Positions 2,307-42,011 of a stretch of DNA of 42,011 bases are shown piece after piece. Under the pieces are notes generated by a model, which saw only the letters and a list, made by a program, of their open reading frames with translations, had not been told where the DNA came from and made no database searches. The stretch's first letter is position 1; the number at the start of each line of letters is the position of its first letter. The translations under genes and the position numbers were made by a program. Source of the stretch: a virus. Location: the IMG/VR virus record IMGVR_UViG_3300029558_000018, one strand, 5' to 3'.

Positions 2307-2466
2307 CGTCATTCACCGGGTAACTCACCCTCTGCACCGCTTTTCCCGGTGCCAGCTCCCCCACAACCTGCCCAAATCGCGGGCATTGCTTGCTTCGGCA
2401 GATAAATTTCAGCACCTCCGTGCTGGAATCCACACGGCACTCCACGCCGCAAGTCGGGCATCTCAT
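2296..2466 (-). CDS. Small zinc-ribbon protein
   Basis: MRCPTCGVEC...CRSKQCPRFG carries two CxxC pairs. Its ATG overlaps the terL stop as ATGA, suggesting translational coupling. An alternative ATG lies at 2481. Confidence 0.45.
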   Translation of the reverse strand: MRCPTCGVECRVDSSTEVLKFICRSKQCPRFGQVVGELAPGKAVQRVSYPVNDGGQ

Positions 2467-3956
2467 GCAGGGTTCCCCCATTTCTCAATCAGCATTTTGC
2501 GGTCTTTCGGGCTGGCGTTTTTGTAATCCTCGTACATGTCCGCCGTCCACGGCCTTTTTCGTATATTCACAGGCTTTTTCGCCGGGCTTGTCCACCAAAC
2601 GCAAAAATAGCGTAATGCGTCCGGGTAATGCGTCAGGCCGTGCGGGTTCTTCGCATACACATCGGGGTTTTTATCATCCTTCTGTATCTTCGTCAGGCAC
2701 GTCCATAACTCGCCCGGCTTGTAGAACGTCAGATACCCTTTCCCGCTCTTTTCGTCCTTGCGCAGCCATTGTTTCATAGCCGCGCATCCTGCCGGGAAGT
2801 CTCTAGAACTCTGCACCAACGGCAATCCCGCCTCGCCGAACAGCTGTGCCCGGCTCTTGCCGCTCTCCTGGCTTCGGTTCCACAGGTCAGGTGGTGCAAG
2901 ATACATGTCTATCTCTTCCTCGGCAGAATCACGCAAAATCAAGTCTGCCGCTTCACTTATCGTCTTGTTCGGCCCGCCGTCCACCCGGTACACCGTTGCA
3001 TGGCCCTGCGTGTCAACCGCGATCCAAAGCGCCGCCAACATATCAAGGCCGTAGTCAATCGTCACATAGCGTCTTAGCGGCCCAGTGGGCGGTGCATCGA
3101 CCAAGTGGGTATCTTTGTCAAGCTCACTAAAAAAGCGCCCTCCGGGGGCGGAGAGCGCTTCTTCTTCAGTTGCAGGGTACTCCTGCATCGTTTTATCCTC
3201 GCCCAGCGCAGCAACAGTCTGTGCGTACCACTTCTCACTGCGGCGCGGGTCTGTGCTCCACGGCAAAAACAGCTTTGCAAAACCGTTGCCGGGGTTTGTG
3301 TAGATTTCCTCAAACAGCGTGCCAAGTTTGATGGTTGACAACCCGATGACACGTCCGCCGAACGGTCTGTTGATAACCGGGTATGCAGCCTGCCAGATTT
3401 CCTCTGCGTACTGCTGGAACGCCCATTCGTCTATCACGATCAAGTCAGCGGTAAACGAACGGCCTGCCGCAGGGCTTGACGGGAACGCCTTAAACACGCT
3501 CTCCGGGCCGTCCGGCCACATCACAACCACCTGCATTGTGCTTTTGTAGAATACCGGCCCCGTCCAGCCTGCAACGCTGCCGCCCGGCGTGTCCACCTCG
3601 CGGATAAGCCCCGGCATGTATCGCAGTATCACAGCCAAGCGGCGTACAAGCTCTTTGGCCTCGTCCTCTGACCGGCTCAAGCCAATCGCAGTACGGCCTG
3701 TATTCAGCGCCACAAGCCGTGCTACCTCTGCCAGCGCCAACCATGTAAAGCCCAACTGGCGCGCTTTCAGCACGCAAACAAGCCGGTTCTCGGCAAATAC
3801 GACCAGCGCTTTTTTTTGCCCATCCCACAGCGTAAACGGCTGTATCAGCTCGTCTGCGTCCTTGTCCTCAATGTGGCAATATGTTTCGCAAAAATATACC
3901 GGGTCTTTCCTGCACGCCTCGCGCTCAAGTTCCCGCATCTCTTCCAGCGTCAACAC
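2463..3956 (-). CDS. terL: Terminase large subunit
   Basis: 497 aa. Walker-A-like VLKARQLGFTW, Walker-B-like ADLIVIDEWAF and a C-terminal nuclease-sized domain. GTG start at 3956 (ATG alternative at 3938). Confidence 0.9.
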   Translation of the reverse strand: MLTLEEMRELEREACRKDPVYFCETYCHIEDKDADELIQPFTLWDGQKKALVVFAENRLVCVLKARQLGFTWLALAEVARLVALNTGRTAIGLSRSEDEAKELVRRLAVILRYMPGLIREVDTPGGSVAGWTGPVFYKSTMQVVVMWPDGPESVFKAFPSSPAAGRSFTADLIVIDEWAFQQYAEEIWQAAYPVINRPFGGRVIGLSTIKLGTLFEEIYTNPGNGFAKLFLPWSTDPRRSEKWYAQTVAALGEDKTMQEYPATEEEALSAPGGRFFSELDKDTHLVDAPPTGPLRRYVTIDYGLDMLAALWIAVDTQGHATVYRVDGGPNKTISEAADLILRDSAEEEIDMYLAPPDLWNRSQESGKSRAQLFGEAGLPLVQSSRDFPAGCAAMKQWLRKDEKSGKGYLTFYKPGELWTCLTKIQKDDKNPDVYAKNPHGLTHYPDALRYFCVWWTSPAKKPVNIRKRPWTADMYEDYKNASPKDRKMLIEKWGNPA

Positions 3957-4175
3957 ATTACCCCGCCTTTAGCAAAAGTCTTGCGTGGAAAACCAGCCAA
4001 TCAAAACGAATTGCAAAGTTCGGTACCGCATACACCATGTTGTCACGCAAAAACGAAAGCGACGGCAACAGAAAGAATGATTTCCCGTAAATCTCAAAAT
4101 CGAACTTGCAATCCATTTCTCTACCTCAAAATTCCCCAAACCCGCCCTACCGGTCTCTGCTATGCCGGTCTCACC

Positions 4176-4207
4176 CGTTGCGGGGAGCAAATCCGCAACG
4201 CTTTTTT
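4176..4207 (+). terminator. Terminator-like hairpin plus T-run on the plus strand inside the spacer
   Basis: CGTTGCGG(4176-4183)/CCGCAACG(4193-4200) followed by cTTTTTT (4201-4207). No plus-strand gene lies upstream. Confidence 0.45.
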
Positions 4208-4481: not shown

Positions 4482-4539
4482 TGCCCTCAGCAGGACTTGA
4501 ACCGGCACACCAAGGCTCTTGCCATTGAGCTACAAGGGC
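4482..4539 (-). ncRNA. tRNA-like element lacking the anticodon arm (58 nt)
   Basis: Minus strand reads GCCCTTG-TA-GCTC-AATGGCAA-GAGC-C-TTGGTGT-GCCGG-TTCAAGT-CCTGC-TGAGGGC-A. It has a 7-bp acceptor stem (two G-U pairs), a canonical D arm and a T arm with TTCAAGT loop (one C-U mismatch). About 17 nt, the size of an anticodon stem-loop, are missing. No CCA is encoded. Confidence 0.6.
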
Positions 4540-6262: not shown

Positions 6263-6351
6263 CATGTACAGCTTGCACAATCTGCATGTTTCATGTTTGT
6301 GCATATCTCCGAATGTGCATGAAACATGTTGACAGCATTGCATGAATCATG
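6256..6351. promoter_or_regulatory. Array of four CATG-N3-CATG operator-like sites
   Basis: CATGCAACATG 6256-6266; CATGTTTCATG 6285-6295; CATGAAACATG 6318-6328; CATGAATCATG 6341-6351. The first overlaps the -35 of the leftward promoter. The last two flank or occupy the rightward promoter. Confidence 0.65.
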
Positions 6352-6357
6352 TATAAT
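6329..6357 (+). promoter_or_regulatory. Consensus sigma-70 promoter facing the MTase-like moron
   Basis: TTGACA (6329-6334), 17-nt spacer, TATAAT (6352-6357). Confidence 0.75.
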
Positions 6358-7860
6358 AAAGCCATCGAAACAAAGAGCAGCCGCCCCGGCAATGACTATC
6401 TGCTGGACGCCTTGCAGCTCGACTGCATCGAGCAGTCCGCCGCCCTCCGCGCCACCCTCAAAGAAAACGGTTTCCGCGTCATCCACGACGATTTCCTCAC
6501 CTTCACGCCCCGCGCCCACTATAAGGCGATCATCATGAACCCGCCGTTCTCCGAGGGTGCCCGCCACCTGCTGCACGCCCTGCACATCATGGAGCGGGGC
6601 GGGGAAGTCCGCTGCATCCTCAACGCCGAGACGATCCGCAACCCCTGCACTAACGAGCGCAAGGAGCTTGCCGCCCTGCTTGCCAAGTACAACGCCCGGA
6701 TCACCTACAAGCAAGGCGCCTTCACCCACGCCGCCCGCAAAACCGCGGTAGAGGTTGCGCTCGTTTTCGTCACGATCCCGCCTGCTCCTCCTGTCTCCCG
6801 CATCCGCTTAGAACTCAACGCCGAGACGACACAGCGCTACCAGGCCGCGCCCGAGCTTGCCGCCCTCGTCAACAATGACCCCCTCACGGCAGCAGTCGAG
6901 CGCTACAACGCCGCCGCGGACGGTCTCGCCCGCCTGTATGAAGAATACGACGGTATTTCCTCGCTGTTCACCCTACCCAAAAAGCAGGGCGACAGCAGCG
7001 CCCCCGCGCCCTGCGTCTCCCTCACCAAGAGCTACAACAACGCCCTGTGCGATCTCCGCGCCATCTATTGGGAGCAGCTTTTCGACCTTCCGCAAATCCG
7101 CGACGCCATGACGCAGACGATGCAGAACGACTACCACAAGCGCCTCAACGACCTTCGCCACTACGATTTTACCCCCTACAACATCCTGACCGTGCGCGAG
7201 GAAATCTCCCGCAACATCGTCTCCAACATTGAATCCGAGATCATCCGCCTGTTTGACGACTGGACCAGCACCCACTACGCCGACTACAGTAAGAACATTC
7301 ACTACTACAACGGCTGGTGCACAAACTCCGCCTACAAGGTCAACAAGCGCGTGATCTTCCGCTGCAACGCCTACAGCGTTTACTCCGACGATTTCTGCCC
7401 GACTTTCACCGAAGATGAGATCGCCAACATCGAGAAAACGCTTCACTTCCTCGACACCAACGGCACCGCCTACAACGGCGATGACCTCCGCGCCACGCTC
7501 AAAGCTGCCGAGGCCAGCGGCCAGACCACCAAGATCAAGCTGCACTACTTCACCGCCACGTTCTACAAAAAAGGCACCTGTCACATCGAGTTTACCAACG
7601 CCGATGTGCTGAAATCCTTCAACATCTTCGCATCCCAGAAAAAAGGCTGGCTGCCTCCGTCCTACGGCAAAAAGACCTATCACGACATGAGCACGGCAGA
7701 TCGCGCCGTCGTGGACAGCTTCGAGGGCGAGACCTCCTACAACGACACGATGGCACGGCATCTGGTCCCCACCACCGCAACACTTATGCAGCTTGCCGCC
7801 CACAACCCCGCCTGCCAACCGTCACAAGATTCTGGCCGAGATCATCGGCCGGGCAAATAA
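6349..7860 (+). CDS. N6-adenine-MTase-like protein with degenerate motif I and a large uncharacterised C-terminal domain
   Basis: NPPF at aa 64-67 (IIMNPPFSEG). Motif I reads AIETKSSRPGNDYLL where hhEPxxGxG is expected. About 350 aa of unknown function follow. The only in-frame ATG (6349) lies inside the promoter at 6329-6357. Confidence 0.6.
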   Translation: MYNKAIETKSSRPGNDYLLDALQLDCIEQSAALRATLKENGFRVIHDDFLTFTPRAHYKAIIMNPPFSEGARHLLHALHIMERGGEVRCILNAETIRNPCTNERKELAALLAKYNARITYKQGAFTHAARKTAVEVALVFVTIPPAPPVSRIRLELNAETTQRYQAAPELAALVNNDPLTAAVERYNAAADGLARLYEEYDGISSLFTLPKKQGDSSAPAPCVSLTKSYNNALCDLRAIYWEQLFDLPQIRDAMTQTMQNDYHKRLNDLRHYDFTPYNILTVREEISRNIVSNIESEIIRLFDDWTSTHYADYSKNIHYYNGWCTNSAYKVNKRVIFRCNAYSVYSDDFCPTFTEDEIANIEKTLHFLDTNGTAYNGDDLRATLKAAEASGQTTKIKLHYFTATFYKKGTCHIEFTNADVLKSFNIFASQKKGWLPPSYGKKTYHDMSTADRAVVDSFEGETSYNDTMARHLVPTTATLMQLAAHNPACQPSQDSGRDHRPGK

Positions 7861-11063: not shown

Positions 11064-11367
11064 ACTTTACATAAGCTATATACTTTAGAATGTCTTCCCG
11101 CTCTGCATCAGTAAGGTCTACGCACTCTCTGGCTACGATTTCCCCATTGCTTTCTGCAATGGGGTTTTCTTTTTTGTCCATAGATAGCAAATAGTCCGCA
11201 GACACACCAAAGTATTCCGCTATTTTTTGCAGCTGTGCCGCCTGTGGACTAGTACCTTTTTTCTTCCACACCGAAACAGTACCTTTATTTATACCCATAT
11301 CCAGCGCCGCCCGGCTACAAGTCACATTGTGTTCTTCACATAGTTTCTTGTAAACGTCAAAAAACAT
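11044..11367 (-). CDS. XRE-family (CI-like) repressor
   Basis: 107 aa. HTH CSRAALDMGINKGTVSVWKKKGTSPQAAQLQKIAEYFGVSADYLL. Divergent from a Cro-like gene. Confidence 0.9.
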   Translation of the reverse strand: MFFDVYKKLCEEHNVTCSRAALDMGINKGTVSVWKKKGTSPQAAQLQKIAEYFGVSADYLLSMDKKENPIAESNGEIVARECVDLTDAEREDILKYIAYVKSKRDSA

Positions 11368-11391
11368 AGTTTTATCCCTCTCCCTTTGTGC

Positions 11392-11420
11392 ATATTGCCA
11401 AAGTCTAAAAAGATAGACAA
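11392..11420 (-). promoter_or_regulatory. Candidate repressor (leftward) promoter
   Basis: Minus strand reads TTGTCT (11415-11420), 17-nt spacer, CAATAT (11392-11397). Confidence 0.5.
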
Positions 11421-11481
11421 AACCACTTTACAAGTTTAACTAAATAGACTATAATGAAACTGTTGGTTGACAAAGTTAGAC
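11403..11481. promoter_or_regulatory. Three operators GTYTA-N6-TAGAC spaced 31-32 bp apart
   Basis: O1 GTCTAaaaagaTAGAC 11403-11418; O2 GTTTAactaaaTAGAC 11434-11449; O3 GTTGAcaaagtTAGAC 11466-11481. Confidence 0.6.
11427..11455 (+). promoter_or_regulatory. Early rightward promoter
   Basis: TTTACA (11427-11432), 17-nt spacer, TATAAT (11450-11455). Operator O2 fills the spacer. Confidence 0.7.
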
Positions 11482-11571
11482 CCTTGTATCGGTGGTTTGA
11501 TTCTAGCAACTTCATTCTATCACAAGAGTTTAAGAAAATCAACAAATTCTGTTGAAAGGAGATAAGTTTGT

Positions 11572-11766
11572 ATGGCTGAACAATGGATTGCGGAAATTGT
11601 CGGCAAAATGCACATCCACCGCATCCGCCAACAGGATGTTGCGAAAGCCCTTTCGGTCACGCCGGAGTATGTCAGCGCCATTCTTAACGGTCACCGTTCC
11701 CCTGCTGGCGCACAGCAGCGCTTTGAAAAGGCTGTCGCAGACATCATCGCAGAAAGAAAAGAGTAA
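11572..11766 (+). CDS. Cro-like HTH regulator
   Basis: 64 aa. IRQQDVAKALSVTPEYVSAILNG helix-turn-helix. First gene of the early operon. RBS AAAGGAGA. Confidence 0.8.
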   Translation: MAEQWIAEIVGKMHIHRIRQQDVAKALSVTPEYVSAILNGHRSPAGAQQRFEKAVADIIAERKE

Positions 11767-11769
11767 CCG

Positions 11770-12099
11770 ATGTCTACTATCGCAACCGTTTTTACGGTGA
11801 CCTTCGCGCTTACCGGCCTATCAAGCCTGCTTGCCGCAGTGGTAGCAAAGTCCGCTTTGAAGCGATTGAACAATTCAGATCGCGCCGAATCTCCTGATTC
11901 CTTTTCATTGTGTGATTTTTACGAGCTGAACCCAAATCTTCAAAATAATTTGGCAACGGAATGCCAACGAAGCCAAACAGATTTGGAATACAACTACAAC
12001 TGGGCAAAATCCACTTTGGGCATTGCCGGGCCGTTCAATCGCTACACGGTCAACGACCTCAAAAACGCCTATGACAGCAACTACCGCAGAAAGGAGTAA
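11770..12099 (+). CDS. Early membrane-anchored protein carrying a portal-like peptide segment
   Basis: N-terminal TM IATVFTVTFALTGLSSLLAAVVA. The segment LEYNYNWAKSTLGIAGPFNRY parallels portal LEMNYTWAKSTLGITDAFQGKY. Confidence 0.6.
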   Translation: MSTIATVFTVTFALTGLSSLLAAVVAKSALKRLNNSDRAESPDSFSLCDFYELNPNLQNNLATECQRSQTDLEYNYNWAKSTLGIAGPFNRYTVNDLKNAYDSNYRRKE

Positions 12100-12105
12100 C
12101 CCGCC

Positions 12106-12303
12106 ATGCCCCGCGAAAAGCCCTTCTACCGTGACACCCTTGTCACCGTCCGTGCCCGCGCTGCCGAGCTTTACCCCGGCGAGATTCTTTTCGGCCCTGG
12201 AAAGGTCGCAAAGATTCTTGGTCGCTCCCGCGGCTGGGTCTGGATGCACTATGGCAGCATCCGCAACATGACCTGCGAACAAATCGCAAGCCTTTTATGC
12301 TGA
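12106..12303 (+). CDS. Small putative DNA-binding protein (HTH-like)
   Basis: 65 aa, RBS AAGGAG. GPGKVAKILGRSRGWVW resembles an HTH recognition segment. Confidence 0.5.
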   Translation: MPREKPFYRDTLVTVRARAAELYPGEILFGPGKVAKILGRSRGWVWMHYGSIRNMTCEQIASLLC

Positions 12304-12368: not shown

Positions 12369-12545
12369 ATGAACATTGTATCACTGAAACGCGCCGCCGT
12401 CAAGCTGGCAATCACCGCAGATTTGGTGCTGCTCTTGGCTGCGCTCGGTTCTCTCAACATCCCCACCACTCTCTCCGCCCTGCTGGCGTTGAATCTGCTG
12501 TGCGGACTGTATCCAAAGGAGGAATCCAGCTATGAAGAAATTTGA
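12369..12545 (+). CDS. Small membrane protein
   Basis: 58 aa from the ATG at 12369, with two hydrophobic segments (AITADLVLLLAALGSL, LSALLALNLLCGL). The longer ORF from 12297 has no RBS. Confidence 0.45.
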   Translation: MNIVSLKRAAVKLAITADLVLLLAALGSLNIPTTLSALLALNLLCGLYPKEESSYEEI

Positions 12546-13374
12546 ACTGACCGCCGAATTTGTAACGAACGTTTTCGGGAAGAAGCTGTTCCGTATTAAG
12601 GCTCTCGTCGCTTTTGGCGACGTCGCGAAGGGAGAACTCGGCGGATTTATTGAGAAGGAAGGCAACCTCTCCAACGACGGTAATGCGTGGGTCTCCGGCG
12701 ATGCGTGGGTCTACGGAGATGCGCAGGTCTACGGCAATGCGTGGGTCTCCGGCAATGCGCAGGTCTCCGGCAATGCGTGGGTCTACGGAGATGCGCAGGT
12801 CTACGGCAATGCGTGGGTCTCCGGCAATGCGCAGGTCTCCGGCAATGTGCGGGTCTCCGGCGATGCGTGGGTCTACGGCAATGCGCGGGTCTTCGACAAT
12901 GCGTGGGTCTACGGCAATGCGCAGGTCTACGGCAATGCGTGGGTCTACGGAGATGCGCAGGTCTACGGCAATGCGTGGGTCTACGGAGATGCGCAGGTCT
13001 ACGGCAATGCGTGGGTCTCCGGCAATGCGCAGGTCTCCGGCAATGTGCGGGTCTACGGCAATGCGCAGGTCTCCGGCAATGCGCGGGTCTACGGCAATGC
13101 GCGGGTCTCCGGCGATGCGCAGGTCTCCGGCAATGCGGACTACGCCGTCGTTACAGGCTTTGGACGCTACTTCCGCGCGACTACATTTTTTCGCTGCAAG
13201 GATAAAATTCTCCGCGTGCAGTGCGGTTGCTTTTATGGTGATTTAGCGCAGTTCCGCAAAATCGTCAAGAAAACCCACGGCGACAGCAAATACGCCAAAG
13301 AGTACCTCGCAATCGCCGACTTGATGGAGTTTCATTTTTATGATGAGGAAGAAAATCAGGAGGCCGACGAATGA
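12532..13374 (+). CDS. Hexapeptide-repeat (left-handed beta-helix-like) protein of unknown function
   Basis: 280 aa, RBS GGAGG. It has 25 consecutive G-[ND]-A-x-V-[SY] hexads. The conserved-looking N-terminus is MKKFELT...FGDVAKGELGGFIEKEGNLS. The C-terminus is TTFFRCKD...VQCGCFYGDL..F...V.KTHG. Confidence 0.85.
   Translation: MKKFELTAEFVTNVFGKKLFRIKALVAFGDVAKGELGGFIEKEGNLSNDGNAWVSGDAWVYGDAQVYGNAWVSGNAQVSGNAWVYGDAQVYGNAWVSGNAQVSGNVRVSGDAWVYGNARVFDNAWVYGNAQVYGNAWVYGDAQVYGNAWVYGDAQVYGNAWVSGNAQVSGNVRVYGNAQVSGNARVYGNARVSGDAQVSGNADYAVVTGFGRYFRATTFFRCKDKILRVQCGCFYGDLAQFRKIVKKTHGDSKYAKEYLAIADLMEFHFYDEEENQEADE
12679..13128 (+). repeat. Tandem array of 25 x 18-nt units (GGCAATGCGTGGGTCTCC and variants)
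   Basis: Units were read directly. The 54-nt block 12715-12768 recurs exactly at 12787-12840. All three forward frames stay open across the array. Confidence 0.95.
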
Positions 13375-22837: not shown

Positions 22838-22846
22838 CACAGCAAA

Positions 22847-22890
22847 GCCCGCAGCTGTTCGGAATTTCCGAACAGCTGCGGGCTGATTTT
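22847..22890. terminator. Convergent (bidirectional) terminator between the early and late operons
   Basis: 16-bp stem GCCCGCAGCTGTTCGG(22847-22862)/CCGAACAGCTGCGGGC(22868-22883). It is followed by TGATTTTTT on the plus strand and TTTGCTG on the minus strand. Confidence 0.8.
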
Positions 22891-24670: not shown

Positions 24671-27600
24671 TCAAAACGGGTTTTTCTTGCCCCACTGCTT
24701 GTTGGTTTTCGCCAGATACGCGCGCCGCATCTCGTTCGTCAAGTCCATCTCGTTCAAACGCGCAACAGCCTCGCCCTTATCGACTTTGCCATTGCCGTTC
24801 GTGTCGGGAATAGTAGCGCGGTAGTTTACCCAGTCGCGCAGCGCATCTGCGCCGTAGCTCTGGTAAATCTCTGCACCGGCCTTGTCGGCATACGTGCCGC
24901 CCTTTTCCGGGTACTTACCGTTCTTGTCCTTCTTGTAGTACGCTGCCAGATACGCCCTTGCAAAGTCGTCTCCGCCCAGGCCATATTTCTGCATACCGTA
25001 ACCGACTGTAAACTTGTCCGGGGTCTGCCCATCGTCCAGTGTCTTTGCCACAGCACTGTAAGCCTGCATGTAGGCGGTGACCGCCTTGTCTCCGGCAAGG
25101 TCTCTGATGTTGTGTACAGTGCTGCCATCGTCGGTGCTGTCTACAAAGTTGCTTACTGCATCATCACCGAACTGCGAATAGAGCGTGTTCCACTTCTCCA
25201 CGGTGTTCAGCGTCGCATCGTCATTGCTGCTCGTCTCCCGCTTTTCATCGCGCACAAGGTCAGTGGCGTTCTTCATCAGCACATACTGGCTGAATCCTTC
25301 CGCGCCGCCGTCCCGGTATGCCTCGTACTCCTTCGCGTTCACACCGCTCACACCGTCACCCACAGCGGCCACGCCGCCAGCGGTTTTGGCTACCTTGTAG
25401 GCATTCTGCACAAGCGCACTCTGCTGGTCTTCCGGTAGCTGCAAAAACATACTGTTCTGCCGCAGCTCGTCAATCAGGTCATAGGCCGTCTGCCCGCTCG
25501 TCTTGGCGTACTCGGTCTTTTCCTCCGGGGTCATGTAGTATTTTTCACTGTCAACCGTGATTTGGCTGCTTGCCTTCTCCGGCAAGACGTGGCTGTCGTT
25601 CGTGCCGTTGTACAGTCCTTGCAGATACTCGTCAACCGGGGTAATGTTCTCGGCGCTCACATAACCGGGGCTAAGCATGTTGTACGCACCGCGCAGGAAC
25701 ATGCCCTTCGCTGAATTGTCCGTGCCGTCAAGACTCGCCTCTTCGCGGCCCCACTGGTCAATGTACGGCTCGTTGTTCATGCTCAGCCCGGGGATTTTGT
25801 TCTCCATCTTGCGGATATTGTACCCAATATCCCGTTCGGTCTTTGTGTCGCCGCCGCCGTAGCTGCTGCGCCGGGTATCGTCCACCGTCCGCGCCACCTG
25901 GCCTAAAGCCGTAGGCACAAACTGGTTGGCAAAGCTGCCAAGTGCACTTGTCGCAAGCGTTGCCAACTTGTCATTGGAATCTGCATAGCTTACACTGTCC
26001 AGCGTATCATTCAAGCCTTGCAGCATCGTGGTTTCCAGTACGGGCTGCGTAATCTGGCGCATCCTGTCCAGCGTCTGCGTCAGGTTAAACTCTCCGCCGT
26101 CTTCCTGGTCTTTAGCGATCTGCGCACCAATCAGCAGCGGCACGCTCGACGGGCTAGCCCAGTCTAGCGTGTAAGTCCCTTTCCCGGGTATTTTTACGGC
26201 ATAATTCTGGTCGCCCAGCATTTCATTGTAGTTATCGGCGCGGTCATCTCCGCTCGCACCGCCGGTCAGCATACCATTCTTGGCAAGCAAATAACCGACG
26301 CCCAAAATTGCTGTGCCTGTTACGCCCTTTGCTGCAGCGTCCATGACCCGCGTTGCACCCTGACCGGTTGCCCCACGGTAGATCGCTTCAACAGCACCGC
26401 CGACGGGATTGTACTCCAATGCGTTCTTTGCAATGTTGATGGGCGTTTTCTTAAACGGCAAAATGCCTTCCGTCACCGCATAGGCAATCTGCCCGGCAGG
26501 CCCATGCCTCCGCGTATCGTTTGAGAAATTGCGGAACGCCGTGCTCAAAAAGTTGTCCTCGTGGAATGTAGCTTCCCGCGCATCTTCAAGCGCTTGCGCC
26601 GCAGCCTGCCGCAGTACAGACCGGCTGTGTTCATCCGTAGCGTCAAAAATGCTGCTGTCATACCCGCGTGCTTTTAAAAAGCTCGCCATGCTGTTGCCGA
26701 ACGCGCTGCGCAAAAAGAAATTATCCTCTGCTTCCAGCGCGCCGCCGTTTATGTCGCTTAAGCGCCCGATTGCTCGCCCAACAGGCGTGGTGTAGGTGTT
26801 TCGTGCGGCCTGCAGCCCGGTATCAATGTTCCAGCGGCCATCCTGATACAGCATGCTGTACATCTGGTTATCCGCGTAGTCTCTGGCACGGTTTACCATT
26901 CGCCGTCCATCCGCAGTCAGCATTGTGCCGACAGCTTTCGTACGTTCGTTCTGCGGCAAGGCAAGCTGCATCACGCCTGCAATATTGTCCTTTGCGCGCG
27001 TTACCGTGCCCATCATGACATTGCCCATCATGTTACGGATATGCGTGCGGCTGTTGCCAAGCATGCACAGGTAACGGATGTTATTCAGTCTGTCTGCAAA
27101 CCCGCGCGCAGGCATATAGTTTGCCATGCGGCCGTAAACGCTCATCTCAAGGTCGTAGCGCTCCCGGCTGTCCGGCATGTCCGAAATCCGGCGGAAAGTG
27201 TCAACGGCATAGTCTAAATCTTCCTGACTTAAATCGCCGATGCCAAGGGCCTGCCGTGCAAACGCACCGTAAATGTCTTCGACAGTGCCGCCTGCTTGCA
27301 GTCTGGCTGCGGCAGCTCTGGCCTGTTCCTCGTTGATGTTTACGTTGCGCGCGCGGCCCATGCGTTGAATTTGCTCGGCCATATACTCAAGCTGGTCGCG
27401 TACATCATCACCGGTGTCAACGCCCTGACTATGCACAAAGGCCGTGAACTCATCATCCATCGGCCCATTCATCGTGTCGGCAACTTCCTGCGCTATATCG
27501 TGCAGCTGTTGTCCCTGCCGCGTATTGGCAAAGCGGTCAACACTGTTCTGTGTGTACTGCTCAAACCGCCGGATTCCGCTGTATTCGTCAGGCTGCGCAT

Positions 27601-30600
27601 ATCGCCCGGAAACAAGCGCCTGTCCGGCTTTGCTCTGCCCGGCGCTTATGGCACGGTTGATATTCGCAATTTGGGCTTTCACTACATCGGCTTCCGCGCT
27701 GCCTTCCGGCAGTTCTGCCAAACGCTGGCGTAGCTGTTCTGCCGCATGACTGCCCGCGTACACGTCGGAAGCATCCCATTGCCCATGTTGGATTTTCCTG
27801 TTCAGCTCATCTGCCACTGTGCGCCCGGCTTCGGTCACGCTGCCGGTCTGCTGCACAAGTACATCAAAATCCTGCGATGCCGTGTCCCTGCCCTCTGCCC
27901 GGCTGTAAACAGTGTGCGTCTGCTCGCCAATGCCAATCCCTGCAGCGGTTTGCTCGTCCATATCTCCGCGCATAACACGCTGGTTCGCGTAGTCCTGGTT
28001 CAGCACTTCGCGGCGGTTATACTGTGTACTTTCCGCACCAACCGCATTTGCGGGCACACTCTCGCTACCGTTCAGCGGGCGGGCCGCAACGCTCTGTGCC
28101 ATACTGTCCTGCAAGGAAGCGGCGGCATCCGCCGTGTCAGTGCCGCCAAACATCCTGTCGTAAACGCGGCGGGTGTAGTCCGGCATATTGCTGTCAAAGC
28201 CCTGCACCTCAAGCCAGTCCGCAAAGTCCTCCGTGCCAGCCTGTCGCCCGGTGGGGCCGTCCAGAATCATGTCACGGTAATAGTCTGCCGTCGCAGCCGC
28301 CTGGTCGGTATCCACCAAAGCCCCGCGGTTGCTGGCCGCTACAGCGGAAAGCAGGTCATCCACGCCGGAACCGTTCACACCGGTCCCCATGTCGGCAAGC
28401 TCCATCAGGGCAGTGTCATACGGTAAACCACTCGTGGTAGAAAAATTTGTCCCGTTCTGGAAGTTGTACTGCTGGATGTTCTTCAAGCCGCTGGTATACA
28501 AAATATCCCCCGCCGCCTGCTCGTCCAGACGGATGGGGGTGCTTTTAAAGTAATCCCGCAGCGTAGCCGTCGCCTCGTCCACAGGCTCCGCAAAGCCGCT
28601 TTCCTTCACAATGCCGGTAGCAATGTCCTTTGCCTCGTCAGCCATGCTCTCCCGCGTCGCGCCGCTCTGTAGCTTGCCGTACAGGTCTTCAATGCGCCGG
28701 GTGTAAACGCTGCGTCTGTCCTTGCCGGTTATTGATTTTGCCCATTCAGCCACCGCTCCAGCGTCCGGCGCATCAGGGCCTTGTACTCCTCGTCCGTTGC
28801 CATCCGCGGTGCTACCAAGCCCTGCTGTACCAGTCTGTCCAGCAAGCCCGCTTCCAACTCCTCCGGGTTGCGGTTCATAGCCTGCGCCAGTGTCAGCGTT
28901 GAGGGGAACGTCTGCTCGAACGCCTGCTCCCAGGTTGTCATTCTGAACACCTCCATTTACTTCATTGTAGCCCGCGGCGCGCTGCGCGTCAATCGGCAAA
29001 CTGTCCGTATTTTGCAGCGCAAGTTTAGCTTCATCGTCAATCTCCTGCTGGCGCTGCAACACGGCGCGGCGAAGCTGTTCAGCCTCTTTTTCCTGCGCGC
29101 CGTTCAAGTTGACCTGCCCGCGCAGTTCATCCAGCGTATTCAATGCGCTGCGGTTGGCTGCGTCTGGCGTATTCATCTGCTGTATCTGCGCGGCAAGCCC
29201 GGTTGTGCCGTTGGCTTCCGGCTGCACAATGTTTCTTGCCGGTGCAGCACTCTGCACATCCTGCACGGCATTGTCAGCTTGTTTCAAGGCATCCTGCGCG
29301 GCATCCCCTGCCGTGCCTTTCAGTCTGTTGAACAACGCCCCGCCGATTTCCGGCAGCGCGTTCATCGCCACATTGCCCGCAATGTTCTTTGCAGTGTTGC
29401 CTGCGATCTCTCCGGCACTCTTGCCCTCGCTCACATCGTTCACAAGGCTCGGCAGGGTGTCCAGTGCAAGGTCTGCTGTCGTGTCGGTCAAAATGCGCCC
29501 CAGTGCATCACCGGCACCCGCACCCAGTACATCCCCCAACACAGGGATTTTCTGCGCCTGCCCCACAACGACATTGCCGGCCTTGCCCATCGCTTGCGCA
29601 AGCGGTGTTCCTTCCATAGCGGTGTTGAACAGTTTGTACTGCATTCCCTTGCCGACAAGCGTGCCTGCCGCCGCCGCCAGCGGGTCATAGCTCTTTGCGC
29701 CCTCGATCGCATTGCTAAGCTGCGGCAGCTCGGCGCCGGTCGCATTTGCAATTTCCGCCAGCTTATCCACACTCTTCGTCAAAAACGGCACACTGTCATA
29801 CAGCCCGGCTGTAAACGCCTGCGCAGTCTGCCCGGCTCCGTTCATCTGCGCTTTTCCGCGCAAAGCGCTGTTCTGGTTCAGCGCGGCATTCATGGCAGCC
29901 GTCTTTTTTGCGTAGTCCTCTTGGCTCAGACCATCTTTGTTTGCGGCAGTCTCAAACACCCGCTTCAAGCCGCTAAAGCCGGTATTCTTCGTGCTTTTTT
30001 CGTACTGGTTCACCGCCGCCACTTCGGCGCTCGTCAGCTTGCGTCCCGGGGCAGCCAGTTCGGCGCGGTAATTAGCATCGCTTTGCAGCTTTTTCAGCGC
30101 AACGGCAATGTCCTCCTGTCGGCTCTTGTAGTCGTTGCGCTTGTCCTTTGCAGCCTGTGCCTCTGACGCGCTGGGGGCGCTCCCTGCGGCGGCGTAACTG
30201 CTGCCGATAACTTTCCCGCCCCGCGTCACAGCGCGGCTCTGTGCGGGCTGTGCGGCGCTCTGGCGCTCTGCGTAGCTGTTCCCGATGGGCTTGTCTTTAT
30301 TGGCTCCGGCATTTGCGGAAGTTTGCTTGTCTTTAAGCAGCTGCGCAGTTCGCTCTGCTTTCTGCTGGGCGCGGTATTTGATGTCGGATTTTTCCTGTTT
30401 GCTGTCGTTATACCGGGCGCGGGCACTGGCGTTGCGCTCTGCATTTGTGCGCTTGGGGTCGTAGTTGCCGCCTTTATTTCTCTCCGTGTCGGCGGTACTT
30501 GCCGCACTGTCTTCTCCAAACAGCGCATCCAGCGATGCCGCACTTTCCGTGTCGCCGCCCGTGCCGGTGGTACTGCCGCCCTTGCCGGAAGATTTCCTGC

Positions 30601-30958
30601 TGGATTTTGCAGCCTTCGCCGCTTTCTTCGCCGCATACTGCTGCGCCTTTTGCTGCTGCTGGTACAAATCGTTTGCCGCGTCAAACTTTGCCTGCGCCAG
30701 TTTCATCTGCCGGTTCAAAATATCGTTGTTCAAACTGTTTTCAAGGTTTGCACCCTGCACAATGTTGTTCAGCGTCTCGGTGTAGCTGTTATGCAGCACA
30801 GGCAGCGTCTTGTCAGTGGCGTTCATGATGGCACTGCCCTGCTGCTGTGCTTTCCTCGTTGTGCTGCGGCCAGTGCTAACATTGCTGGCCTGCGCCGTCT
30901 GGTATCGGTTCAAATACGCATTCAGCAGCGCATCTTCACGACCATTCACTTTCGCCAT
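24671..30958 (-). CDS. Giant (2,095 aa) virion-associated protein, possibly an internal/ejected polyvalent protein
   Basis: Single uninterrupted ORF. The N-terminal ~350 aa are Q/A/K/S-rich and low complexity. Large globular regions follow. An EF-hand-like loop DTNGNGKVDKGE lies near the C-terminus (24770-24805). Confidence 0.8.
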   Translation of the reverse strand: MAKVNGREDALLNAYLNRYQTAQASNVSTGRSTTRKAQQQGSAIMNATDKTLPVLHNSYTETLNNIVQGANLENSLNNDILNRQMKLAQAKFDAANDLYQQQQKAQQYAAKKAAKAAKSSRKSSGKGGSTTGTGGDTESAASLDALFGEDSAASTADTERNKGGNYDPKRTNAERNASARARYNDSKQEKSDIKYRAQQKAERTAQLLKDKQTSANAGANKDKPIGNSYAERQSAAQPAQSRAVTRGGKVIGSSYAAAGSAPSASEAQAAKDKRNDYKSRQEDIAVALKKLQSDANYRAELAAPGRKLTSAEVAAVNQYEKSTKNTGFSGLKRVFETAANKDGLSQEDYAKKTAAMNAALNQNSALRGKAQMNGAGQTAQAFTAGLYDSVPFLTKSVDKLAEIANATGAELPQLSNAIEGAKSYDPLAAAAGTLVGKGMQYKLFNTAMEGTPLAQAMGKAGNVVVGQAQKIPVLGDVLGAGAGDALGRILTDTTADLALDTLPSLVNDVSEGKSAGEIAGNTAKNIAGNVAMNALPEIGGALFNRLKGTAGDAAQDALKQADNAVQDVQSAAPARNIVQPEANGTTGLAAQIQQMNTPDAANRSALNTLDELRGQVNLNGAQEKEAEQLRRAVLQRQQEIDDEAKLALQNTDSLPIDAQRAAGYNEVNGGVQNDNLGAGVRADVPLNADTGAGYEPQPGGVGSGLAGQTGTAGLGSTADGNGRGVQGPDAPDAGAVAEWAKSITGKDRRSVYTRRIEDLYGKLQSGATRESMADEAKDIATGIVKESGFAEPVDEATATLRDYFKSTPIRLDEQAAGDILYTSGLKNIQQYNFQNGTNFSTTSGLPYDTALMELADMGTGVNGSGVDDLLSAVAASNRGALVDTDQAAATADYYRDMILDGPTGRQAGTEDFADWLEVQGFDSNMPDYTRRVYDRMFGGTDTADAAASLQDSMAQSVAARPLNGSESVPANAVGAESTQYNRREVLNQDYANQRVMRGDMDEQTAAGIGIGEQTHTVYSRAEGRDTASQDFDVLVQQTGSVTEAGRTVADELNRKIQHGQWDASDVYAGSHAAEQLRQRLAELPEGSAEADVVKAQIANINRAISAGQSKAGQALVSGRYAQPDEYSGIRRFEQYTQNSVDRFANTRQGQQLHDIAQEVADTMNGPMDDEFTAFVHSQGVDTGDDVRDQLEYMAEQIQRMGRARNVNINEEQARAAAARLQAGGTVEDIYGAFARQALGIGDLSQEDLDYAVDTFRRISDMPDSRERYDLEMSVYGRMANYMPARGFADRLNNIRYLCMLGNSRTHIRNMMGNVMMGTVTRAKDNIAGVMQLALPQNERTKAVGTMLTADGRRMVNRARDYADNQMYSMLYQDGRWNIDTGLQAARNTYTTPVGRAIGRLSDINGGALEAEDNFFLRSAFGNSMASFLKARGYDSSIFDATDEHSRSVLRQAAAQALEDAREATFHEDNFLSTAFRNFSNDTRRHGPAGQIAYAVTEGILPFKKTPINIAKNALEYNPVGGAVEAIYRGATGQGATRVMDAAAKGVTGTAILGVGYLLAKNGMLTGGASGDDRADNYNEMLGDQNYAVKIPGKGTYTLDWASPSSVPLLIGAQIAKDQEDGGEFNLTQTLDRMRQITQPVLETTMLQGLNDTLDSVSYADSNDKLATLATSALGSFANQFVPTALGQVARTVDDTRRSSYGGGDTKTERDIGYNIRKMENKIPGLSMNNEPYIDQWGREEASLDGTDNSAKGMFLRGAYNMLSPGYVSAENITPVDEYLQGLYNGTNDSHVLPEKASSQITVDSEKYYMTPEEKTEYAKTSGQTAYDLIDELRQNSMFLQLPEDQQSALVQNAYKVAKTAGGVAAVGDGVSGVNAKEYEAYRDGGAEGFSQYVLMKNATDLVRDEKRETSSNDDATLNTVEKWNTLYSQFGDDAVSNFVDSTDDGSTVHNIRDLAGDKAVTAYMQAYSAVAKTLDDGQTPDKFTVGYGMQKYGLGGDDFARAYLAAYYKKDKNGKYPEKGGTYADKAGAEIYQSYGADALRDWVNYRATIPDTNGNGKVDKGEAVARLNEMDLTNEMRRAYLAKTNKQWGKKNPF

Positions 30959-30985: not shown

Positions 30986-31062
30986 CCTTCCCCATCGGGG
31001 AAAGGTGGCCCCGCAAGGCCGGATGAGGGCAAACTTGATCCAGCTGCTCACTCACCCTGCAT
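30986..31062 (-). repeat. Composite three-hairpin element, copy 3
   Basis: H1 CCTTCCCC-atc-GGGGAAAGG (30986-31005, one bulged A). H2 GGCC-ccgcaa-GGCC (31007-31020). GGATGAGGG at 31021-31029. Weak H3 ATGAGGG/CCCTgCAT. Confidence 0.7.
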
Positions 31063-39474: not shown

Positions 39475-40080
39475 TTACCACCACCCTGTATTGTTGCCCC
39501 AGCTCTCCTGTGTCGGCATTCTGTCTGGGTTTTTCAGCCGCTCAAAAGCAACCTCAAACTCGTTGCGGTAATAGGTGCTCACCGCAATATCGTCGTCCTT
39601 GTACAGCTGGCTTGCCATATACAGGGGCAGCAACACAACGGCATCGTCCGGCAGGTTGATTTTTGTATCGTCCGGCGTGTTTAGCGTGATTGTTGTCGGC
39701 TTTGCATCATAAAAAATCTCAAAAATGCCCTCGGCATCTTCGGGGAATTTCATGTACTTCCCGGCCATAAACGCAGCGCCGTTGTACTTTGTCGGCACAC
39801 CGTTATCGTCAAGGCTGTAAACTTCCAACGTGCCGATCCGGTAAAAGTCCTTTAGCTCGCTGGTCATATCCAGTGCAAAGGTTTCGCCCTTGCTCTTTTC
39901 AATGGTCGTGCTTTTGCGGATATACCGCCCTGCTGTCGCAAGCATCTGTAGCGCTTCGTTGGCCGCCTGCGGCATCGCGTTCAAATACTCGCTTATGGCA
40001 TCATCGTTCGCATCAATCGTGGTCCCGTCAGAGCTGAACATCTTCTGCAAGGATGCCAGCTTGATCTGTTCCCATGTCAT
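39475..40080 (-). CDS. Head-tail adaptor-like protein (putative)
   Basis: The ATG at 40080 follows GGGGGTG. Located directly after the portal gene. The ORF track uses a TTG at 40086. Confidence 0.45.
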   Translation of the reverse strand: MTWEQIKLASLQKMFSSDGTTIDANDDAISEYLNAMPQAANEALQMLATAGRYIRKSTTIEKSKGETFALDMTSELKDFYRIGTLEVYSLDDNGVPTKYNGAAFMAGKYMKFPEDAEGIFEIFYDAKPTTITLNTPDDTKINLPDDAVVLLPLYMASQLYKDDDIAVSTYYRNEFEVAFERLKNPDRMPTQESWGNNTGWW

Positions 40081-41911
40081 TTGCAATCACCCCCTGCTGC
40101 ATAGCTTCCTGTTTGTCCATCTCCTCTTTGATGGATTTCTGCATTGTGGCTGCATACGGGAATCCGGTCTCTTTCAGGAAAGTCCACAACCGGTACTGGC
40201 TTGCAGGCTCGGTAATGTTGCCAAAACCACCCGCTTGATACTTCACATCGACCATATCCCACAGCCGCTCACGGTTGCTTGCAAGGTTCGATGCAGGGTC
40301 TACCTCAATGATAAATTCATCGTTCCAGTACAATTCCCCGGCTGCGTCCCGCTTCAAAAACTCCATCCTGTCAAAATGCCCGAACTGCTGTTCACCGTCC
40401 GTGTCGGTCTCGGTCATCGGGTACGGCTCATCGGCATACGCCAGCAAAAACTCAAACATCATGCGGTACAGCTTCGCATAGGCGTTGTTCTTCATCTCGC
40501 GCTTGCTCTGCAAACGGCCTGCGCTCTGGTTCGCGCTGAACTGCTTTGCACTGCCGGATGTAGCAGAAGAATCGTACTTGCCCTGGAATGCGTCCGTAAT
40601 GCCCAAAGTGGATTTCGCCCAAGTGTAGTTCATTTCCAGCATGTTCTGGTCGTTCTGCACATTGGGCTGCACATTGATAACATCGATCATGGCTTTCTGG
40701 CTCGGGTTGTCCACGCGCAAAATTTTCAGCTCGTTATCGTTCAGCTCCGCGTTTACGCCCTCCGGCAGCACTACCCAACTGCCGCCTTTCAGCAGCTTTT
40801 CCTGAATTTTCGTGCCGTATTTGTTGATGGCCTGCTGCTGGTCAGCGATTATATCTACATCCGACACGCCCAAAAACTTGTCCGATGCCGCAATGTTTAT
40901 CCGCTCCACAATCGGGAACCCGTGCGGTTTGTAGGCCGGTATCTCGTTGGCCTGCATCTCGCCCGGCATCATAATGACCTCGCCGCTCTCGTTGTCACGC
41001 TGCACACTGCCGTCCGGGTTCACAATGGGCACATCCTCGCCCGGTACCTGTGCAGGCAACACCTCGCCGCTGCTAAGGAGTACATCTTGCGTCAGCGTAA
41101 GGGTCTGCACTGGCTGTTCTTTGAACTTCTTGTTCCCGCAAACACAGACATCCCCCACGCGACGCCGTCCGCATTTCGTGCAGACCTCTGCCGTGCGCGC
41201 ATAATAATCGGGGAAATCTTCAAGCACCTGGCACCCTACCCAGCTAAACATGCCTACTGTGCCCTTGTCGTGCTTGTAATAGACAATGTTCTGCGTCACA
41301 ACGCCTGTGTGGGTGCTGTCATCGCCACCGCGTGCGTCCGGCGCGTCCTCTGTGTCGGTCTCAATGGTAATGCCGTACCGCGCTTCCAGCGATTCCTTGC
41401 TCTTTGATACCTGCACAAAGATATAATCCATATCCTCAATACGGTACACGCCCGGCTGCGGAATGACCTGCCGTGGGTGACGCATCTCTACTTCAACATC
41501 GCCCAGCGTGCAGTGATACCCTGCAACCGGGTTCCACTCCACATGGAAAAAGTCTGCGCCCTGCACCGGCACTGTGCGTTCGCTTCTGTCGTTCAGTTCA
41601 ATAAACCGCATCCGCCGCGCCTGATTGCGCAGCATGTTTTCTGTCTTTCGCGCCAAGTCCCGGTCTTCTGCATGGATGGCTGTGACCTTCGGCATCGGGT
41701 AGCTGGAATCCACCTGACTTTCAATCAGCTCATAGATGATATTGCGCACATTCGTGGCGTTCTTTTTGGCACCCTGTATCTCGTGGCTGCCGTAGTACAT
41801 GGCCTCACGCTTGCGCATCTTTTCCAGGGTGTCACTGTATGCAGCTTTTGCGTTGGATAGCTTACCCTGCCATTTTTCAAGGTCTTTTGTCTGCTTATCG
41901 TCTTTCTTCAT
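40028..41911 (-). CDS. Portal protein
   Basis: 627 aa. The N-terminal segment NVRNIIYELIESQVDSSYPMPKV resembles portal families as I recall them. Size is typical. RBS ACAGGAG. Confidence 0.8.
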   Translation of the reverse strand: MKKDDKQTKDLEKWQGKLSNAKAAYSDTLEKMRKREAMYYGSHEIQGAKKNATNVRNIIYELIESQVDSSYPMPKVTAIHAEDRDLARKTENMLRNQARRMRFIELNDRSERTVPVQGADFFHVEWNPVAGYHCTLGDVEVEMRHPRQVIPQPGVYRIEDMDYIFVQVSKSKESLEARYGITIETDTEDAPDARGGDDSTHTGVVTQNIVYYKHDKGTVGMFSWVGCQVLEDFPDYYARTAEVCTKCGRRRVGDVCVCGNKKFKEQPVQTLTLTQDVLLSSGEVLPAQVPGEDVPIVNPDGSVQRDNESGEVIMMPGEMQANEIPAYKPHGFPIVERINIAASDKFLGVSDVDIIADQQQAINKYGTKIQEKLLKGGSWVVLPEGVNAELNDNELKILRVDNPSQKAMIDVINVQPNVQNDQNMLEMNYTWAKSTLGITDAFQGKYDSSATSGSAKQFSANQSAGRLQSKREMKNNAYAKLYRMMFEFLLAYADEPYPMTETDTDGEQQFGHFDRMEFLKRDAAGELYWNDEFIIEVDPASNLASNRERLWDMVDVKYQAGGFGNITEPASQYRLWTFLKETGFPYAATMQKSIKEEMDKQEAMQQGVIANDMGTDQAGILAEDVQL

Positions 41912-41950: not shown

Positions 41951-42011
41951 AAAAAAGCCGCCCCTCATCCGGCCTGCGGGCCACCTTCCCCCAAAGGGGG
42001 AAGGTGGCCCG
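41951..42011 (-). terminator. Left arm and loop of the junction palindrome with its minus-strand T-run: very strong intrinsic terminator between the capsid and portal genes
   Basis: 41957-41992 pairs perfectly with 18-53 across the junction (36 bp). The plus-strand A-run 41951-41956 gives TTTTTT after the stem on the minus strand. Confidence 0.75.

Follow-up and report, generated by a model that had tools for sequence, protein, structure and literature searches.

An optional early gene of a gut phage that carries a captured fragment of the phage's own portal gene

Membrane-anchored superinfection-exclusion proteins encoded by prophages include Sie of the lactococcal P335 phages and Ltp of TP-J34. 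In the portal of phage P22, two stem helices form most of the DNA channel, and the clip recruits the large terminase and, later, gp4 (PMC5290284). The portal is also bound by host sensors of the STAND type (Avs4 and Avs11), and other defences recognise short structural-protein motifs, such as the capsid motifs sensed by Lit or CapRel (PMC13581612). Fast-evolving accessory genes are considered likely to antagonise host defences or other viruses (bioRxiv 10.1101/2023.04.06.535777).

The window considered here is a 42,011-nt stretch of viral DNA (IMG/VR record IMGVR_UViG_3300029558_000018), in which an inverted repeat connects a 109-aa ORF, situated directly after a cro-like gene, with the portal gene. 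The reading preferred here, to which we give a probability of roughly 0.6, is that this repeat is the nucleotide footprint of a partial duplication of the portal gene into the early operon, and that the resulting protein would be an early, membrane-tethered mimic of the portal stem and clip. About 50 codons of a portal gene of this phage lineage were copied, and now make up the C-terminal two thirds of the small protein, in this genome behind an N-terminal transmembrane (TM) anchor.

The ORF lies in a lysogeny-switch neighbourhood comprising an integrase gene (minus strand), two ORFs, a CI-like HTH gene (minus strand) and a second HTH gene (minus strand), followed by a promoter-like site and cro (plus strand). 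The features on the cro side are:

11427..11455, plus strand: promoter-like site TTTACA-17-TATAAT, 5' of the cro-like gene (11 of 12 positions match; a consensus match only)
11572..11766, plus strand: cro-like HTH gene, 64 aa (Pfam HTH_3), found in the same arrangement at every related locus
11750..11768, plus strand: left junction repeat cagaaagaaaagagtaacc, containing the 3' end of cro and an RBS (alignment to an ORF-less genome)
11770..12099, plus strand: 109-aa accessory ORF, consisting of a TM anchor and a portal-derived module (ORF calls, database relatives)
12087..12101, plus strand: right junction repeat cagaaaggagtaacc, bearing the RBS of the next gene (alignment to an ORF-less genome)
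12106..12303, plus strand: conserved early gene, 65 aa, with a weak HTH_23 match; right border of the cargo slot

Beginning 4 nt past the cro stop codon, the small ORF is co-oriented with cro and has an RBS. Judging from its sequence, the site at 11427..11455 is the probable early rightward promoter of both cro and the small ORF; it is the sole strong promoter-like site, and no promoter or terminator bracketing the ORF on its own strand was found. Alignment with an ORF-less relative places the cassette between two copies of the RBS-bearing junction AGAAAG(A/G)AGTAACC. In related genomes, the slot between cro and the 65-aa gene (11766-12106 in the window) holds from zero to two alternative small ORFs, with or without the 109-aa ORF. 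These alternatives include ORFs of 50 aa (MTPQERIALLDKQ...) and 92 aa (MQVINLIGLSEDDF...), each flanked by the AAGGAGTAACC junction, and further slot loci are found at L002 10330-10610, at L039 7909-8061, and 5' of the 65-aa gene in L050 and L049. The ORF thus has the discrete boundaries and alternative cargo of an accessory, moron-type cassette, and its presence is polymorphic: among the 14 IMG/VR relatives from which both portal and slot were retrieved, it is carried by two and absent from 12, with portals that are 97-100% identical among the carriers and most of the non-carriers. At least four different types of cro adjoin it. Synonymous diversity in the same genomes (pS) is 0.11 for the ORF and 0.30 for the adjacent 65-aa gene; the cassette is therefore younger, or has spread more recently, than its neighbour, since its pS is one third of that of the 65-aa gene.

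Further along the plus strand, an array of at least 24 head-to-tail 18-nt units (12587-13227, within 12532-13374) encodes a 280-aa hexapeptide-repeat protein with a match to the YdcK beta-solenoid (E = 7e-42) and also to bactofilin, and in L255 the slot is followed by a related repeat protein (11086-11850). A 503-aa protein encoded between the packaging genes and the integrase (6349-7860, plus strand) matches DUF4942 and DNA-methyltransferase-like PHROGs; in related contigs, its gene adjoins a 66-aa ORF weakly similar to TacA1. The minus-strand segments 4137-4200 and 4482-4539 gave a match to the Rfam D12-methyl RNA motif (84 bits, gathering threshold 57) and, close by, a weak tRNA-like match (34.5 bits) that is not called by ARAGORN. 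The blocks of plus- and minus-strand genes converge at a perfect 19-nt inverted repeat with a 1-nt spacer (22846-22884), which is probably a bidirectional terminator. The late region contains a single ORF of 2095 aa (24671-30958, minus strand). A GC-rich double hairpin of 48 nt (CCTTCCCCC..GGGGGAAGG, then GGCCCCGCAGGGCC) is present in three copies (6-53, 2241-2288 and 30986-31033), the second and third of which are 94% alike; all lie in intergenic gaps of the minus-strand late operon, and they could be terminators, processing sites or regulatory sites. The first 33 nt of the window repeat the last 33 nt (1-56 / 41954-42011), indicating a circular or permuted assembly, and the sequence spanning the end junction, with the capsid block on one side and the portal gene on the other, is an almost perfect palindrome whose arms measure about 40 nt. 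The window encodes TerL at 2463..3956 and the adaptor-like protein at 39475..40086. Other contigs carry the genes in the order TerL, 56 aa, 272 aa, capsid, 68 aa, portal and adaptor-like; given this order around the portal, the window is a circular permutation and the 33-nt end overlap is an assembly artefact.

The two genes that share the repeat are made up as follows:

11788..11844, plus strand: TM helix of the small protein, residues 7-25 (Kyte-Doolittle hydropathy)
11881..11949, plus strand: clip-derived, diverged flank RAESPDSFSLCDFYELNPNLQNN, residues 38-60 (shuffle test), bearing the family-invariant FYxLNxNLQxNL
11950..11973, plus strand: eight-codon insertion LATECQRS relative to the portal (protein alignment)
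11983..12024, plus strand: ORF core LEYNYNWAKSTLGI, the plus arm of the inverted repeat and counterpart of portal stem helix alpha5
12025..12099, plus strand: tail AGPFNRY...RRKE, a shortened version of the long tail seen in the 119- and 152-aa relatives
40028..41911, minus strand: portal gene, 627 aa (PHROG 156, AlphaFold2 model, Foldseek)
40586..40717, minus strand: source region, portal residues 399-442, distal clip and stem helix alpha5 (BLASTP and portal model)
40598..40639, minus strand: portal core LEMNYTWAKSTLGI, residues 425-438, the minus arm of the inverted repeat

The first-pass annotation of the window, made from the sequence alone, had reported that tgggcaaaatccactttgggcatt (12001-12024, plus strand) agrees with the reverse complement of 40598-40621 in 23 of its 24 positions, 18 of them in one exact run, and this was reproduced exactly. 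Its hand alignment, of about 80% identity over about 45 nt, was refined by comparison of the window with itself: a repeat finder gives arms at 11984-12024 and 40598-40638, of 41 nt and 85% complementary, and in the window only the terminal palindrome is a longer inverted repeat, so that this pair ranks second. Both arms are read in frame, the plus arm in the 109-aa ORF and the minus arm in the portal gene, again as proposed. A pair consisting of the target and template of a diversity-generating retroelement (DGR) was considered and rejected: the mismatches are of all kinds (C/T, ATG/TAC, CT/AC, G/A) rather than adenine-specific, and the flank differs at 54% of its sites.

At the protein level, residues 38-89 of the ORF align with portal residues 399-442 (BLASTP, 40% identity over 52 positions with one 8-aa gap, E = 7e-10), and hydropathy indicates a single anchor, with a Kyte-Doolittle 19-residue maximum of 2.05 at residues 7-25; these two results support the earlier suggestion that an early, TM-anchored small protein bears a portal-derived peptide. 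No K or R residues precede the helix and four follow it, and the C-terminal part is thus predicted, from the positive-inside rule, to be cytoplasmic. The flank is similar to the portal without the core: the score of RAESPDSFSLCDFYELNPNLQNN against portal RVDNPSQKAMIDVINVQPNVQND was reached by none of 2000 shuffles, and its position is collinear. Alignment of the core to the portal by hhalign gave a probability of 88% over 18 columns. Downstream of the core, a shuffle test revealed no significant similarity between the 109-aa tail and the portal, and derivation of this tail from the portal stretch after the tunnel loop (NAY..YR) was rejected for the same reason. Pfam and PHROG searches with all forms of the small ORF returned nothing credible, and no match to the region was found by blastn among 50,697 phage records. 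The small ORF does not match the whole-protein portal profiles (PF16510 / PHROG 156) and lacks the complete portal fold, portal residues ~399-442 alone being represented; its own AlphaFold2 model is weak and consists of three helices (pLDDT 53). At 109 aa against 627 aa, and with most of the portal parts absent, it cannot form a portal.

The 627-aa protein matches the PHROG 156 profile (E = 4.9e-44) and, weakly, Pfam P22_portal. A sequence search of the PDB with this protein gave no match; the fold search gave portals, the best PDB neighbours found by Foldseek for its AlphaFold2 model (128 homologues, pLDDT 89.7, pTM 0.84) being those of N4, Pan3, SU10, Pa223 and P22. Its relatives in the 50,697 phage records are two in number, both unannotated, and a Subdoligranulum genome contains a portal 69% identical to the resident one. 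In the model, residues 351-375 form the first stem helix, 376-418 the clip, 419-436 the second stem helix, 437-452 the tunnel loop and 453-492 a long wing helix. From these segment borders, the captured piece is the distal clip and the second stem helix (alpha5, ending at the tunnel loop); the mapping of the peptide onto a portal structure prediction, which had been proposed as a check, places the 14-residue core inside this helix. The motif [AK][KR]STLGI[TS]D[SA][FY] is kept in portals down to ~30% identity, from which the portal is taken to have been the donor and the small ORF the recipient. Some 11.9 kb separate the small ORF from the start of the portal gene. Two other explanations of the diverged flank were rejected. 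A distant low-GC portal or another foreign donor is contradicted by the best flank matches, which come from close clades in a set of 270 portals reaching down to 27% identity, and the flank carries the wording PNVQND that is specific to these clades. Compensated frameshifts are contradicted by a gapped nucleotide alignment, in which the flank shows no significant similarity.

Searches of 5.8 billion proteins retrieved one small family of 101-152 aa, with variants, including deletion and fusion forms, spanning 89-152 aa. This is a small, optional and previously undescribed family of portal-fragment proteins. The 109-aa forms fall into ten clusters that are 84-95% identical, and all ten distinct nucleotide variants are intact. 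The 119-aa forms (P0011 and P0284) have the TM anchor, the module and a long tail, IPNGWTI[EQ]KDADLNILRV, that matches portal residues 380-407, just upstream of the first captured piece; this score was reached by 3 of 2000 shuffles, and the best local match of the tail lies within portal residues 380-407 in 105 of 120 portals. The 152-aa form (P0283), from a prophage in a MAG labelled Bulleidia sp. (192-kb contig), occupies the slot after cro and has the module and the long tail behind a soluble N-terminus, with no TM helix. P0285 and P0286 have kept the flank motif and the long tail, but the core is missing. In P0012 (L043 1305-1574), an 89-aa fusion, the first 27 residues including the TM anchor are kept and the portal-like module is deleted; the fusion partner is a relative of the next gene, joined at a 9-nt microhomology over VAK codons, GT(A/C)GCAAAG. 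Conservation across the family peaks not in the core but in FYxLNxNLQxNL, a remodelled clip strand and loop. The series documents, with intermediates (TM-anchored, soluble, second-portal-piece, core-less and fusion-deletion forms), how a phage can build a new small gene out of part of an essential structural gene.

The resemblance of the core DNA to the portal gene could reflect the retention of an old sequence or a later renewal. The small ORF core reads LEYNYNW, which is the state of the 85% and 76% portal clades, whereas the resident-clade portals of the three genomes holding both genes read LEMNYTW; a TerL-anchored retrieval covered IMG/VR genomes and one ENA contig. The family core consensus, LEYNYNWAKSTLGIT, reads exactly as the 85%-clade portal does and is one residue away from the wording of the 76% clade. 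On these sequences, the copy preserves an ancestral portal wording and the resident portal later changed two residues (Y427M and N430T, on one face of the mimicked helix). As the copy and the resident portal differ in this way, there is no co-variation between them, and the concerted evolution with the portal envisaged in the first-pass annotation did not hold in the three genomes. Compared with the best portals, the core is identical at 38 of 42 nt, with four synonymous and no nonsynonymous differences; portal clades differ among themselves with a pS of 0.45-0.63, and the synonymous difference between core and portal is no greater. The core is rich in residues with one or two codons (W, E, Y, N, K), so that amino-acid identity alone would give about 85-90% DNA identity. 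Under the duplication reading, the likeness of the core DNA would be explained by the kept amino acids, the low-degeneracy codons and the ancestral wording together, to which a short gene-conversion "refresh" from the portal gene may have added.

The strongest rival goes further, and holds that the near-identity of the core is mainly the product of later short-patch gene conversion into an older, decayed fragment, which would then have two ages, rather than of selection. Several contrasts between flank and core are consistent with it. States common to the 109- and 119-aa forms but absent from every portal number 23 among the 69 flank sites and 0 among the 36 core sites (7 of 23 and 0 of 12, respectively, at third positions); the core of the 109-aa family is 4-5 of 36 nt away from close portals and 9-10 of 36 from the cores of the 119- and 152-aa forms; a 27-nt stretch is identical to a portal variant of its own clade; and there is an abrupt step in GC3, the flank having 0.33 and the core 0.60. 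These numbers are small, however, and the third-position contrast is marginal (P ~0.07, a rough estimate that was not computed). The flanks, at 46% nucleotide identity to the portal (pN 0.46), offer no homology for initiation, the Y/M and N/T codons at which copy and resident portal differ indicate no recent conversion in these genomes, and selection on the helix accounts for the same pattern. Conversion as the main cause is thus a serious possibility, but we would bet against it. The core fits two readings, that the helix sequence was strongly retained or that a short patch was converted after the flank had diverged, and in neither case is its identity the passive, recent scar of the fragment as a whole.

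A second rival is that the module is such a scar in its entirety: portal DNA inserted by illegitimate recombination, in frame by accident, functionless and decaying. Substitutions within the 109-aa family, counted by tree-based parsimony, amount to 32 synonymous and 65 nonsynonymous changes over the whole ORF, corresponding to an omega of ~0.85 when transition bias is allowed for, which is not different from 1 (P = 0.26). In the portal-like part the counts are 21 synonymous and 55 nonsynonymous (omega ~1), and the TM part, with 11 and 10, is the only clearly constrained part within this family. The Nei-Gojobori dN/dS of the family is 0.52, rising to ~0.85 once transition bias and the tree are included; by the Nei-Gojobori method, dN/dS is 0.10 in the neighbouring gene, 0.09 in the portal and just 0.02 in portal codons 399-490. 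This near-neutrality favours a scar, as do the absence of the ORF from 12 of the 14 close relatives, the existence of deletion variants, the low GC3 of the flank with its strong GC-to-AT bias (19 S>W and 6 W>S changes) and the low-confidence fold of the model. Against it, the family has no stop codon, compared with 3.4 expected under neutrality (P = 0.03), and its frame is always intact; the ORF always follows cro directly, with an RBS; the module is common to three architectures; and its motifs are invariant across members that are just 35-65% identical. Between subfamilies, moreover, dN/dS is 0.10-0.25 for the module and 0.12 for the long tail (119- versus 152-aa forms), despite synonymous sites near saturation (pS 0.5-0.86), and from this low ratio the module is taken to be a maintained domain rather than a dead scar. 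The first-pass annotation had proposed that loss of the segment in otherwise identical phages would point to a neutral scar. Such cases exist, as near-identical phages without the ORF and as variants without the segment (P0012, P0285, P0286), but the purifying selection between subfamilies does not agree with that conclusion. A functionless scar is therefore unlikely, though not negligibly so. We read the pattern as that of a maintained module, probably only weakly constrained, in which close relatives differ by many slightly deleterious or neutral changes. Even if the ORF were functionless, the locus would illustrate clearly how an ORFan is born and decays.

It has also been suggested that the repeat is kept for a function at the level of DNA or RNA, either the inversion of the 28.6-kb segment or a shared regulatory RNA or protein site, for which the sole support is the existence of the repeat and its inverted orientation. 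This is very improbable. The portal copies show free synonymous variation in the core, some variants of the small ORF are without the core and most relatives are without the ORF. Every locus that has both copies is collinear with the window, so that both orientations of an invertible segment are not seen among related genomes; recombination within the core would truncate the portal, and no chimeric small-ORF/portal protein was found in two database searches, including that of the 5.8 billion proteins. No Rfam family matches either arm, and the mRNAs of the two genes have the same sense and therefore cannot pair with each other. Neither of the two proposals of this kind in the first-pass annotation, inversion and a shared regulatory target, thus stands. 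Chance similarity, for which only the shortness of the exact run speaks, is rejected with near certainty by the repeat statistics and protein homology, as 60 first-order Markov simulations of the window gave longest exact inverted matches of 14-17 nt (18 nt observed, beyond chance as had been claimed), the repeat extends well past this run, the protein match is collinear with a flank that is significant independently, and relatives carry a second portal-like piece corresponding to portal residues ~381-400.

If the duplication reading is correct, the protein would be made early, from the cro promoter, and would be held at the membrane by its anchor, the portal-like part facing the cytoplasm, the 152-aa form being soluble. 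It could then join or cap nascent portal oligomers by means of its stem-helix mimic, hindering ring assembly; alternatively, it may compete for a partner of the clip or stem, such as the large terminase, the adaptor or a host portal sensor. A role as decoy or competitor is conceivable because portal sensors (Avs4, Avs11) and motif-reading defences exist. Action of the early, membrane-anchored protein through its portal-derived surface is a tentative proposal, and the clip-derived flank may have become too unlike the portal to bind the same partners. A conflict between phages or between phage and defence would be the most likely setting. The more specific proposal, of a tethered early mimic of stem helix and clip acting in such a conflict, either as a poison subunit that blocks ring assembly or the docking of terminase or adaptor in co-infecting related phages, or as a competitor for a host sensor, is rather unlikely. 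If it were true, phages would be turning pieces of their own core structural genes into weapons or shields. The captured piece comes from the parts that form the DNA channel and dock the terminase and adaptor in P22, which makes the family a testable candidate for a self-derived inhibitor or decoy in conflicts among phages, or between phage and host, in the human gut.

Compared with portals of the P22/SU10/N4 type (PF16510, PHROG 156), the small ORF has some 50 residues in common, those of the distal clip and alpha5, including NYxWAKSxLG, but is without the wing, the crown, the first stem helix and the tunnel loop. As in the signals read by Lit, CapRel, Avs4 and Avs11, a short stretch of a structural protein may suffice for recognition; in those cases, however, the motif lies within the structural protein itself, whereas here it is a separate, early-encoded copy. 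We know of no description of a separately encoded, early-expressed copy of a sensed structural motif. Like the superinfection-exclusion proteins of the Sie and Ltp type, the small protein is membrane-anchored through its N-terminus (except in the 152-aa relative, which has no anchor), optional and encoded beside the genetic switch of a temperate phage. It differs from them in being transcribed in the cro (lytic) direction rather than with the repressor, in having no lipobox and no sequence similarity to them, and in that its predicted functional part faces the cytoplasm and not the outside. In genomic habit, the small ORF resembles the moron-like accessory genes of hot spots, which arise or move through illegitimate or junction-sequence recombination: the ORF is likewise polymorphic between near-identical genomes and evolves fast, in a slot with alternative cassettes and conserved boundaries. 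Unlike a classical moron, it sits within the cro operon, with no promoter and terminator of its own found, and its coding material comes from the phage's own portal and not from foreign DNA. The birth of an accessory gene by capture of a gene fragment is known in kind; what is unusual here is the donor, the phage's own portal.
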